From positions 159,618 through 191,617 of the forward strand of contig NZ_CP026530.1 of the NCBI RefSeq assembly GCF_004006315.1: 32,000 nucleotides of DNA. The letters run 5' to 3'. The stretch's first letter is position 1, and every line of letters begins with the position of its first letter. The translations under genes were made by a program, and so were the position numbers. Positions 16,941 through 19,792 of this stretch are shown piece after piece. This DNA comes from Nautilia sp. PV-1. GTDB taxonomy: Bacteria > Campylobacterota > Campylobacteria > Campylobacterales > Nautiliaceae. The notes under the pieces were generated by a model. It was not told where the DNA came from. It did no database searches and saw only the letters and a program-made list of their open reading frames with translations.

Positions 16941-17611
16941 GTAAAGAAGCTGTTTTTTCGTTAATTCTTACATTAAAAGTGCTTTGTGCCGATGTGATAC
17001 TGCTGATTATATTTGGTACTATGCTGGTATACTATTTAATGGAAGAAAACAGTTTTTTAAAAAAAACAGTTTATATGCTTATAGACCTTCCCCTTCTTTT
17101 TCCACCGATAGCCACAGGGTTTTTACTTCTTTGGCTTTTTAGGGATAACGGATACCTCGGTAATATATTAAGCAAAATAAACATTCATATTGTATTCGGA
17201 TTTTGGGGTTTGGTATTAGCCGGATTTGTCGCTTCCGTGTCTTTATTTATCAAGCCTCTTATAGCTTCAATTAGACAGTATCCTAAAAATATAATAGAAG
17301 CTTCGTATATTTCAGGTAAAAGTAAATTTAAAACGTTTATATTTATTATTATGCCGGGTATGAAAAAAGTGTTTATAGTTTCTTTTATTTTAAGTGTTTC
17401 AAGAATTTTCGGAGAAGTAGGTATCAGTTTGATGCTGGGAGGAAATATTCCATTTAAAACCAATACGATTTCAATTGAAATTTTTTCAGAGGTTTTTAAC
17501 GGAAACATAGATACTGCTATGAATTTGAGTTTGATTATGTTTGCCGTATCTTTTGTATTGTTTGTTTTTTTAAAATATATAGAAAGTAATATAAAACATG
17601 ATTTATTCTAA
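16937..17611 (+). CDS. Second ModB-like ABC permease
   Basis: 224 aa. Clear paralogue of modB (EAA loop EASYISGKSKFKTFIFIIMP). ATGA overlap with the upstream gene. No cognate ATPase follows. Confidence 0.8.
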   Translation: MSKEAVFSLILTLKVLCADVILLIIFGTMLVYYLMEENSFLKKTVYMLIDLPLLFPPIATGFLLLWLFRDNGYLGNILSKINIHIVFGFWGLVLAGFVASVSLFIKPLIASIRQYPKNIIEASYISGKSKFKTFIFIIMPGMKKVFIVSFILSVSRIFGEVGISLMLGGNIPFKTNTISIEIFSEVFNGNIDTAMNLSLIMFAVSFVLFVFLKYIESNIKHDLF

Positions 17612-18331
17612 CAGTTTTATAGCGATTTCGGTAAGGGCGTTTCTATAAATTTTTTGTAAATCAACCCATGCAAGTGCTTCATGCGGCAGTACCTGCTGCA
17701 GTCTGTAAAGTCCGCTGTCCTGTTTTTCTATTGTAGAATAAGTCTGGTGTAAATCGCCTAATAAAAACAGTTTGCTTCCTTCACTCATTCTTGAGAGTAT
17801 CATACTCATATATTCCCTTGTGATAAGCTGTACTTCGTCAACAATCAGTACTTCTCCTTCAAGAATTGATACGCCCTGAATCATATTTAAAGGAATAATT
17901 TCAAATTTTTCAAAAAATAGCTGGGATTTTATAGAGTCGTATGTCTGACCTTTGAGATCTCGGTACAGGAAATTAAGCGCGCTTAAAAACCCTCCCGCCC
18001 ATTCAAGCATTTTTTCATCTTTGCTTCCCGGCAGAAATCCTATGTCATAATCGCTGCTGATTCCTATAGGCGGTCTGGTTATAAATATTTTCTTTTTGGT
18101 CAGACTCAAAGCCGTGGCGGTTGCAAGCAGGGTTTTGCCGCTCCCGAATCTTCCTGTTATAAGACTCGCAGGGGCTTCTACCATTGCATAAACGGCGCAT
18201 TTTTGGTAAATATCCAGAGGTTCGAAAATTTTGGCGTTTTTTATTCTTATTTTTGAAGTTTCTGGAATGTTGTCAATTCTCTCAATACCTTTATAAGGGT
18301 TATAGCAATACGCCAAGTCTCTTTCGTTCAT
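17603..18331 (-). CDS. PhoH-like ATPase (PhoH2-type), apparently N-terminally truncated
   Basis: 242 aa from the first ATG. Walker A GRFGSGKTLLA, then ITRPPIG...GFLPGSKDEK and Walker B LIVDEVQ, typical of PhoH. No SD before this ATG. The frame stays open upstream to 18475 (see findings). Confidence 0.75.
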   Translation of the reverse strand: MNERDLAYCYNPYKGIERIDNIPETSKIRIKNAKIFEPLDIYQKCAVYAMVEAPASLITGRFGSGKTLLATATALSLTKKKIFITRPPIGISSDYDIGFLPGSKDEKMLEWAGGFLSALNFLYRDLKGQTYDSIKSQLFFEKFEIIPLNMIQGVSILEGEVLIVDEVQLITREYMSMILSRMSEGSKLFLLGDLHQTYSTIEKQDSGLYRLQQVLPHEALAWVDLQKIYRNALTEIAIKLLE

Positions 18332-18475
18332 TTCATCGTAGGTAATTATAAAATCCCAGTATTTGAGTTCGTAACTGTGTTTTTGTTTTATGTATTCAAT
18401 TACTTCTTTTGCAGGTTTGATACCTATAAAATGACCATATTCAAAATTTTTGTCTTTTATTAGAATGGTAACTCC
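18332..18475 (-). other. In-frame 48-codon extension of the PhoH-like ORF resembling the C-terminal end of a PIN domain
   Basis: My translation: GVTILIKDKNFEYGHFIGIKPAKEVIEYIKQKHSYELKYWDFIITYDE, then MNERD. It has no ATG/GTG/TTG and is bounded by the stop codon of the toxin gene (18476-18478). Confidence 0.5.
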
Positions 18476-18754
18476 TTAGAATGGTTTATATTTAGTAATT
18501 CCTAAGATAATTATTTCCGATTTTGTAATTTTATATGGAATAATATAACCTTTAAAAATCAGGTCTCTGATACTGTCATCATTAAAGTATATTGATTTTC
18601 TGTATTTATATGGGAAAAGAGTTAAATTTTCTATTTTATTTTTTAGTTCTTTTTTAAACTCATAAGCAGATTGAGGCTTGTCTTTTTTTATAAAGTTCAA
18701 AATTGTCTTCATATCATCAAAAAAATGTTTTTCATAAACGATTTTATAGTTCAT
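18476..18754 (-). CDS. Type II toxin, RelE/ParE family
   Basis: 92 aa. Pattern MNYKIVY...DDMKTILNFI....P..A..F...L...I..L..FP....K.......IRDLIFKGYIIPYKI....I.ILGI is typical of ParE/RelE. 11-bp overlap with the upstream small gene. Confidence 0.7.
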   Translation of the reverse strand: MNYKIVYEKHFFDDMKTILNFIKKDKPQSAYEFKKELKNKIENLTLFPYKYRKSIYFNDDSIRDLIFKGYIIPYKITKSEIIILGITKYKPF

Positions 18755-18959
18755 CTATTTTATTCCACATTTGGGAGTGCTCTATAATGTTTCCTTTCAA
18801 TGCTGAGTTTAATCTTTTATTGAATTCGGCTTTATCGTTTTTGAATTTTTCAGACTTGATATAAATATCTTTGGCGATTAAATTGTTAACATAGTCGTTA
18901 ATATCTACATTTTGGAGGTAATCAATAAATTCATCATTTATTTGGATATTAATCTTCAT
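18744..18959 (-). CDS. Putative cognate antitoxin
   Basis: 71 aa, immediately upstream of and overlapping the toxin. Assigned by position; no family recognised. Confidence 0.5.
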   Translation of the reverse strand: MKINIQINDEFIDYLQNVDINDYVNNLIAKDIYIKSEKFKNDKAEFNKRLNSALKGNIIEHSQMWNKIDEL

Positions 18960-18961
18960 AT

Positions 18962-19792
18962 TTATCCTTTCATTTTCATTGAGAAATCTTTAAATGTGGC
19001 CTGATGGATTATAGCTCCGCTGCTTACGGCGTCTATCCCGGTTTGAACGTAGTTTTTAATGTTTTCAAGAGTTACGTTTCCGCTCGCCTCGAGTAATATG
19101 CCTTTATGGTTTTCGTTTCTGTAATTTACGACCTTTTTAATCTCTTCGAAGCTCATATTATCGCACATTACGATATCAGCTCCCGCCTGCATGGCTTCTA
19201 TTGCCATTTCTACGGTTTCCGCTTCTATTTCTATTTTTGTGGTAAACGGTATATTTTCCCTTGCGGTTTTTACGGCTTCTTCTATAGAGTTAAATAGTGC
19301 AAGGTGGGTGTCTTTTAGCATCAGACAGTCATCAAGTCCGAGTCTGTGGTTGGTTACGCCTCCGCATGCCGCCGCATATTTTTCAAATACTCTCAGTCCC
19401 GGTTTTGTTTTTCTGGTATCGAGAATATTTAGCTTTCCGTCTGTCAGTTTTACAAACTCATAAGCGTTGCTGGCAATTCCGCTAGCGTGCTGGAGGATAT
19501 TGAGCATGGTTCTTTCTATTGAAAGAATATCTTTGGCGTTTCCGTAAATTTCAAGGATAATATCGCCATGTTTATAAAAATCACTGTCCCGAAAATAAAA
19601 ATCAAATTTAACATCCGCCAGTTCGCTTAAATGTTTTATATATTCAATTCCCGCAACTACTCCTTCGCTTTTTGCTCTGATTATAGCGGTTGCGTTTTTA
19701 TCTATCAGACTTCTGGCCAGATCTCCTCTTCCGATATCTTCGCTTAACGCGTTTTTTAAAAAATCCACTATCTGGTATTTCATCAGGTTCAT
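18962..19792 (-). CDS. nadC: Nicotinate-nucleotide pyrophosphorylase (quinolinate phosphoribosyltransferase)
   Basis: 276 aa. DTRKTKPGLRVFEKYAAACGGVTNHRLGLDD..MLKDTH signature. ATGA-type overlap with nadA. Confidence 0.92.
   Translation of the reverse strand: MNLMKYQIVDFLKNALSEDIGRGDLARSLIDKNATAIIRAKSEGVVAGIEYIKHLSELADVKFDFYFRDSDFYKHGDIILEIYGNAKDILSIERTMLNILQHASGIASNAYEFVKLTDGKLNILDTRKTKPGLRVFEKYAAACGGVTNHRLGLDDCLMLKDTHLALFNSIEEAVKTARENIPFTTKIEIEAETVEMAIEAMQAGADIVMCDNMSFEEIKKVVNYRNENHKGILLEASGNVTLENIKNYVQTGIDAVSSGAIIHQATFKDFSMKMKG

Follow-up and report, generated by a model that had tools for sequence, protein, structure and literature searches.

The window considered here is a stretch of 32,000 nucleotides from Nautilia sp. 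PV-1 (contig NZ_CP026530.1, positions 159,618 to 191,617), in which a phoH gene on the minus strand follows directly on a toxin–antitoxin (TA) cassette of the ParE/RelE type, and the question raised by this locus is where the phoH gene begins and whether the cassette has removed a part of it. The PhoH frame has 290 sense codons and is open from the TAA of the toxin gene (18478–18476) to its own stop at 17605–17603; the first ATG, GTG or TTG within it is the ATG at 18331–18329, which is codon 49 and has 48 codons ahead of it. A GGAG-like Shine–Dalgarno (SD) sequence was looked for in the 20 nucleotides (nt) before this ATG (gattttataattacctacgatgaa), and none was found. The first-pass annotation of this DNA had pointed to the 48 extra open codons and to the ATG without an SD, both of which are borne out by the sequence, and had taken phoH for a PIN-PhoH2 gene decapitated by the cassette. 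As set out below, the PhoH gene of this locus is most probably an intact gene for a PIN-less ATPase of 287 amino acids (aa) that descends from PhoH2 and starts at an ATT codon, the cassette having been inserted later. The finding is a variant of things already known, namely domain loss in PhoH2 and the rare AUU start, and its value is moderate.

Start codon and N-terminal extension of phoH

The stop codon of the toxin gene is the TAA of TAAGGAG, which is followed after a 5-nt spacer (TTACC) by an in-frame ATT (18466–18464), and translation from this ATT to the last sense codon gives 287 aa. The first-pass annotation had placed the ATT correctly at 5 nt after the SD; the size of 288 aa that it gave for the PhoH-only product has to be corrected. 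Orthologues turned up in 23 of the 24 genomes of the same family when 41 related genomes were searched in six frames; they are 80–94% identical over all 290 residues, including the extension, and their open frames, where complete, have 286–295 codons. The start codon was compared among the Nautiliaceae orthologues whose 5′ end is intact, 23 in number and from four genera. The codon homologous to the ATT of the window is ATT in 20 of the 23 and ATA in the remaining 3, and an SD (AAGGAG, AAAGGAG, AAGGAGG or AAAGGA) stands 4–8 nt before it in every one of them, which supports the earlier suggestion that a product could be made from the ATT behind the SD overlapping the toxin stop. Conservation on the 5′ side of the ATT is limited to the SD, and on the 3′ side the sequence ILIEDKNFE(F/Y)GHF is nearly invariant; in G024, an ATG immediately precedes the homologous ATT. 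More distant members of the clade of short, PIN-less proteins have a canonical start at the ATT position or at most one codon from it, namely TTG in L023 and L069, GTG in L024 and L046, and ATG in L025, L070, P0004 and P0030; the two TTG starts both come after nadC, and that of L069 reads TAAGGAG-N5-TTG.

Meanwhile, the next in-frame ATG, GTG or TTG differs in position among the orthologues, from codon 14 to past codon 120, and in G017, G020 and G018 no canonical start was found within 120 codons, that is, past the Walker A motif (residues 105–112). The Met encoded by ATG 18331 is not conserved, its place being taken by I, T, V, A, L, Y or N in orthologues, and the publicly annotated product measures 242 aa here (P0002) and 237–272 aa in relatives. 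The family thus shows the pattern of a conserved AUU start, in which a near-cognate codon at the N-terminus stands behind an SD and a usable canonical start is lacking.

The extension itself carries the marks of a protein-coding region. Over codons 2–45 of phoH (44 columns), the ratio of nonsynonymous to synonymous substitution rates (dN/dS) is 0.16 at a dS of 1.2, with third positions variable in 40 of the 44 columns and second positions in 20 of the 44; the corresponding ratio of the PhoH domain is 0.05, with dS above 1. In the AlphaFold2 (AF2) model of the 287-aa protein, the mean predicted local distance difference test score (pLDDT) is 83.8, and residues 1–80 reach 87–94; the predicted secondary structure consists of a strand at residues 2–4, a helix at 19–30 and strands within 39–63, one of them at 39–44. 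Judged from this model, with a start at ATG 18331 the annotated 242-aa product would begin inside a folded module, past strand 2–4, helix 19–30 and strand 39–44.

Since the codon and its SD are conserved, sister lineages use canonical starts at the same place, canonical starts are missing from several orthologues, and the extension is both under purifying selection and confidently folded by AF2, there is strong support for the ATT as the start codon of phoH, from which the N-terminal extension would be translated. The annotated 242-aa product is most probably a start-codon miscall: gene callers start this family at whichever ATG comes first, which produces the scattered lengths of the annotated relatives and would cut the folded N-terminal domain. 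The locus resembles the AUU-initiated infC and pcnB of E. coli in that the AUU stands behind an SD and close to a preceding stop and that the start is kept over long evolutionary distances, but phoH encodes no translation factor, and the infC of this genome itself uses ATG. With it, a start at AUU that is conserved throughout a family is now well supported by comparison for a gene other than infC and pcnB.

The PhoH2 core and its missing PIN domain

The Pfam PhoH profile (PF02562) matches residues 87–287 of the 290-codon frame with 88.4 bits (cut-off 27), covering profile positions 5–202 of 205, and no PIN family of Pfam matches this frame even at E ≤ 1. The P-loop motifs GRFGSGKT and LIVDEVQ are intact, and their columns are invariant in 24 sequences. 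Homologues within the own clade are 66–94% identical, and the next best are proteins of 430–450 aa with a PIN_4 and a PhoH domain, at about 50% identity; these relatives uphold the earlier assignment of the protein to the PIN-PhoH (PhoH2) lineage without its PIN domain. In BLASTP, residues 5–11 of the window protein align to residues 137–156 of the PIN_4-PhoH proteins, in which PIN_4 ends at residues 115–126. Similarly, hhalign against PIN-PhoH2 (probability 100, E 6.5e-96) places residue 7 on residue 155 of P0048, whose PIN_4 domain ends at 126. The extension is the inter-domain module of PhoH2, lying about 20–30 residues past the end of PIN, and not the PIN tail that had been seen in the 48 codons.

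Comparison of the predicted structure leads to the same relatives. In Foldseek, residues 1 or 2 to 286 align to the PhoH2 proteins of B. subtilis, M. tuberculosis, M. smegmatis and T. bispora, with E values of 1e-16 to 1e-17 and template-modelling (TM) scores by query of 0.68–0.72 for these four reviewed entries, and YbeZ-type PhoH aligns only from residue 64–79 onward. Among its relatives, only the PhoH domain of PDB 3B85 has a solved structure (E 3.5e-11 by sequence, TM 0.74 by target). Over its full 287 aa, the model can be superposed on roughly the last 300 residues of PhoH2 (YlaK of B. subtilis, Rv1095 of M. tuberculosis), including the module ahead of the P-loop; in addition, the protein is about 50% identical to metagenomic PIN_4-PhoH proteins over residues 5–288, with Walker A and B intact. 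It differs from PhoH2 in that it lacks PIN_4, has no small upstream partner of the phoAT kind, is linked to nadC and uses an AUU start. With the YbeZ-type PhoH (PF02562; PDB 3B85) it has the P-loop PhoH domain in common, but the YbeZ type has another N-terminal region, and identity is 23–28%. What the protein contains is the PhoH2-type inter-domain module followed by the PhoH domain, with no N-terminal PIN_4, and it scores 58.7 bits against a cut-off of 680 with the NCBIfam PhoH2 equivalog NF053827. A search of the complete own genome for PIN_4 (PF13638) gave no match, so a separately encoded PIN_4 partner was rejected; the same genome holds no second true PhoH and no copy of the YbeZ type.

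These observations support the view that the protein is a PhoH2 core without PIN, from which the whole PIN domain is absent and not just its first 110 codons. The loss of PIN appears to be old and common to the Nautiliaceae and a few neighbouring lineages of Campylobacterota; loss rather than gain is proposed because the short clade has a narrow distribution. PhoH2 combines a PIN RNase and an ATP-dependent RNA helicase in one fused protein, and RNA unwinding together with RNase activity is known only for mycobacterial PhoH2 proteins (PMC7390352). By family knowledge, the 287-aa protein may bind RNA and work on it as an ATP-dependent helicase or translocase that lacks a nuclease of its own; with the PIN domain absent, it would not be expected to have RNase activity. 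As a natural PhoH2 helicase core without the nuclease, it could help to separate the two activities of a poorly understood and widespread protein.

The nadC–phoH junction, its insertions and the alternative readings

The short phoH gene is present in 26 of the 30 family genomes searched. Synteny of nadA, nadC and phoH was found by tblastn in 17 related loci, and the three genes are contiguous, without a TA cassette, in G003–G005 of the same genus and in 11 other genomes; outside the genus, a cassette-free phoH for a PIN-less protein of about 287 aa lies directly after nadC in three genera. A full-length PIN-PhoH gene adjoining nadC, which the first-pass annotation had looked to relatives for, came to light in none of the 30 family genomes searched. 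Full-length PIN_4-PhoH2 genes were seen, away from nadC, in only two of the genomes, at G009:C7:29401-30591 (minus strand, 446 aa) and G007:C1:440669-441973 (plus strand, 459 aa). Their products are about 31% identical to the short form, which is missing from G009 and is present together with the long form in G007; the long genes were rejected as the parent of the short form, being located elsewhere and only ~31% identical.

The TA cassette stands between nadC and phoH only in G000 (the genome of the window), G001 and G002. At the cassette-free junction of G003, atgaaaatgaaa is joined directly to TAAGGAGTTAAATATT; in the window, atgaaaatgaaa is followed by the segment ggataaatATG...ccattc and then by TAAGGAGTTACCATT. 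The GC content of the cassette is 23.8%, compared with 39.7% for nadC and 36.8% for phoH. From this comparison of junctions, the cassette reads as a 489-bp insertion between the last sense codon of nadC and a resident TAAGGAG. With the insertion placed before the resident TAAGGAG, the toxin gene would end on the stop that nadC uses in G003, and the SD and start of phoH would be left intact. A TA cassette can thus enter an operon junction by using a resident stop codon, with the downstream gene undisturbed.

The toxin carries the Pfam domain ParE_toxin (PF05016; E 3.3e-10, 40.8 bits, cut-off 23) and is preceded by a small overlapping partner gene, which is the arrangement of ParE/RelE toxins. 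The 71-aa antitoxin matches no Pfam or NCBIfam family significantly, the best match, at E 0.029, being to the C-terminal end of a RelN-family antitoxin model. As in type II TA systems of the ParE/RelE kind, there are two overlapping genes with a small upstream antitoxin and a 92-aa toxin, and the cassette is AT-rich and patchy within the genus; it differs from them in that the antitoxin has no significant family match, the toxin uses the stop that belongs to nadC in the cassette-free G003, and the toxin is split in G001. In that genome (L003:1224-1500) the toxin is split over three frames of 40, 30 and 34 aa, with antitoxin and phoH intact, so that either the toxin is decaying or the metagenome-assembled genome has been misassembled here. 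The nadC–phoH junction has also received another gene: in G020 (L006:2366-3328), G024 and G043, three genomes of another genus, a gene for a 320-aa multi-pass membrane protein is inserted there. The stop codon of this gene, too, is the resident TAA, that of TAAGGAGG, and the phoH ATT follows 10 nt later.

Whichever of the three genes (nadC, toxin or 320-aa membrane protein) stands upstream, its stop lies close to the start of phoH, at 3, 9 or 10 nt in 19 genomes and with an overlap of 11–17 nt in 4. A consensus scan of the minus strand from nadA to phoH found no terminator-like site and no more promoter-like sites than in shuffled controls. Because stop and start are close whatever the upstream gene, and no terminator was found between nadA and phoH, it is proposed that phoH translation is coupled to the upstream cistron; ribosomes could initiate de novo at the SD, re-initiate after terminating, or do both. 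It has been reported that an AUU start gives 6–8 times less expression than AUG or GUG in E. coli reporters, and that initiation at the infC junction UAA GGU AUU consists of equal parts of re-initiation and de novo initiation (PMC3592434). The weak AUU start would then keep the output of phoH low or dependent on upstream translation. A readthrough fusion of NadC and PhoH was rejected, the frame relation between nadC and phoH differing among genomes.

Table 1. Features of the nadC–phoH locus, in window positions.
Feature	Positions	Strand	Basis
Proposed true phoH coding sequence, 287-aa PIN-less PhoH2-type P-loop ATPase, ATT 18466-18464 to TAA 17605-17603	17603..18466	-	Pfam, orthologues, dN/dS, AF2
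ATT, proposed non-canonical start codon	18464..18466	-	Orthologue codon comparison
Shine–Dalgarno AAGGAG, sharing bases with the toxin stop TAA (18476-18478) and 5 nt upstream of the ATT	18472..18477	-	Direct reading; SD in all orthologues
First ATG, where the annotated 242-aa product begins; unlikely to be the true start	18329..18331	-	No SD; Met not conserved
Walker A motif GRFGSGKT, residues 105-112 of the 287-aa protein	18131..18154	-	G105, G108, G110, K111 and T112 invariant
Walker B residues D210-E211 within LIVDEVQ	17834..17839	-	Invariant columns in alignments A1 and A2
ParE/RelE-family toxin gene, 92 aa, in the inserted cassette	18476..18754	-	Pfam ParE_toxin PF05016; junction comparison with G003
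Putative antitoxin gene, 71 aa, overlapping the toxin start by 11 nt	18744..18959	-	List of open reading frames; kept with the toxin in G001 and G002
AT-rich insertion of ~489 bp (TA cassette)	18479..18967	-	Comparison with the cassette-free junction of the same genus
nadC (quinolinate phosphoribosyltransferase), ancestral upstream neighbour of phoH	18962..19792	-	tblastn synteny; QRPTase Pfam domains in the L023 neighbour

Several other accounts of the frame have to be weighed against these results. The truncation put forward in the first-pass annotation, in which the cassette recently cut a full PIN-PhoH2 gene, replaced about 110 PIN codons and left a PIN remnant, fits with a frame that is open up to the toxin stop and with PIN-PhoH2 proteins as the closest homologues outside the clade. 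However, in G003–G005 and in three other genera nadC is followed, without a cassette, by a phoH that is equally short and starts at the same position, which is the outcome that the first-pass annotation had itself named as refuting its reading; the extension aligns 20–30 residues past the end of PIN_4 and has no PIN match at E ≤ 1, and the cassette is a clean insertion 5′ of the resident TAAGGAG; independent truncations in the cassette-free relatives are implausible given their identical start position, and a decapitation by the cassette is therefore almost certainly the wrong account. Equally hard to sustain is the idea that phoH is a decaying pseudogene that has lost its start codon. The missing canonical start and the absence of the gene from two near-complete family genomes would agree with decay, but frames of 285–288 codons are intact in more than 20 genomes, the PhoH domain evolves at the low dN/dS given above with dS above 1, and the Walker A and B motifs are invariant and the strong SD is conserved, which together make decay extremely improbable.

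The annotated model could still be right if translation started at ATG 18331 and the upstream frame were conserved for another reason; the ATG is a canonical codon, and public annotation agrees on short products both here and in relatives. This is very unlikely, because the ATG has no SD, its Met is not conserved, the annotated starts of relatives lie at differing positions, Walker A is reached without any canonical start in three genomes, and codons 2–45 are under purifying selection and lie within a confidently modelled domain. Initiation at another non-canonical codon, such as the ATA two codons 3′ of the ATT (codon 3), or at mixed sites, deserves slightly more attention and is still improbable: ATT-YTA-ATA is conserved, three species have ATA-ATA-ATA, and ATA can serve as a weak start, but the spacing from the SD to this ATA is 10–14 nt, compared with 4–8 nt to the ATT, and in sister lineages it is the ATT, or the codon just upstream of it, and not the ATA that coincides with the canonical start. 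Apart from this possible AUA start, some further points count against an intact, ATT-started, functional phoH. The sequencing runs that contain the locus are nearly all DNA or metagenomes, and the single RNA match among them, a metatranscriptome, contains 6% of the sampled words; infC starts with ATG here, so this AUU control gene gives no internal precedent; the helicase activity is extrapolated from distant relatives, 18–24% identical in the Foldseek alignments; the near-complete family genomes G009 and G021 lack the short phoH, which indicates that the gene is dispensable; and the coupling or re-initiation and the low expression suggested above are read from the anatomy of the junction. With these points taken into account, the ATT-started PIN-less gene with a later cassette insertion remains the most probable reading.

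Candidate near-cognate starts elsewhere in the genome

The own genome was scanned for long frames that have no canonical start in their first 35 codons and begin with a near-cognate codon behind an SD, and six loci were obtained. For instance, flhA (G000:C1:843596-845782, plus strand; L079:501-2687) encodes an FHIPEP domain at residues 27–712 and has no canonical start before this domain. In all 21 of the Nautiliaceae orthologues compared, the frame opens with a conserved CTG preceded by ATAAGGAT(G/A)A, the upstream gene overlapping it by about 14 nt, and CUG would appear to be the start codon throughout the family. Another of these genes is comF-like (G000:C1:620775-621326, plus strand; L078:501-1052), whose product has an N-terminus of the form C-x2-C ... 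C-x2-C and a Pribosyltran domain. Of 24 family orthologues, 23 begin with ATT-TTT, often with the stop of the preceding gene at a distance of 2–6 nt; the codon before the ATT is ATG in four orthologues and ACG, AAG, GAG, AAC or AGA in others, and the first canonical start in Nautilia sp. PV-1 is codon 69 of the open frame. An AUU start of infC is typical of many bacteria; in this genome, infC (region G000:C1:1307289-1307501; L052) starts with ATG, in the context TAA ACT ATG AGT AAA.

In phoH, the comF-like gene and flhA, the start is no more than about 17 nt away from the preceding stop, and the SD is embedded in the 3′ end of the preceding gene. Conserved near-cognate starts on tightly coupled cistrons may thus be a habit of the Nautiliaceae, and the three genes (phoH with AUU or AUA, comF-like with AUU and flhA with CUG) provide a testable hypothesis of coupling-dependent weak starts in Campylobacterota of deep-sea vents. 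A further step, that the Nautiliaceae genes are expressed mainly through termination and reinitiation by ribosomes from the upstream gene and not through free 30S initiation, is possible and rather doubtful. If it were true, dependence on reinitiation would explain why two independent insertions, those of the TA cassette and of the 320-aa gene, both end on the TAA of TAAGGAG.

The scan also gave a prepilin-type gene (G000:C1:260454-260927, minus strand; L077:501-974) with an N_methyl motif at residues 5–29, in which an ATT behind GAGGGGAG is the only plausible start and the first canonical start is codon 72. This family has many paralogues, and the orthologue in G003 contains two in-frame TAA codons; the prepilin-type gene may be decaying.

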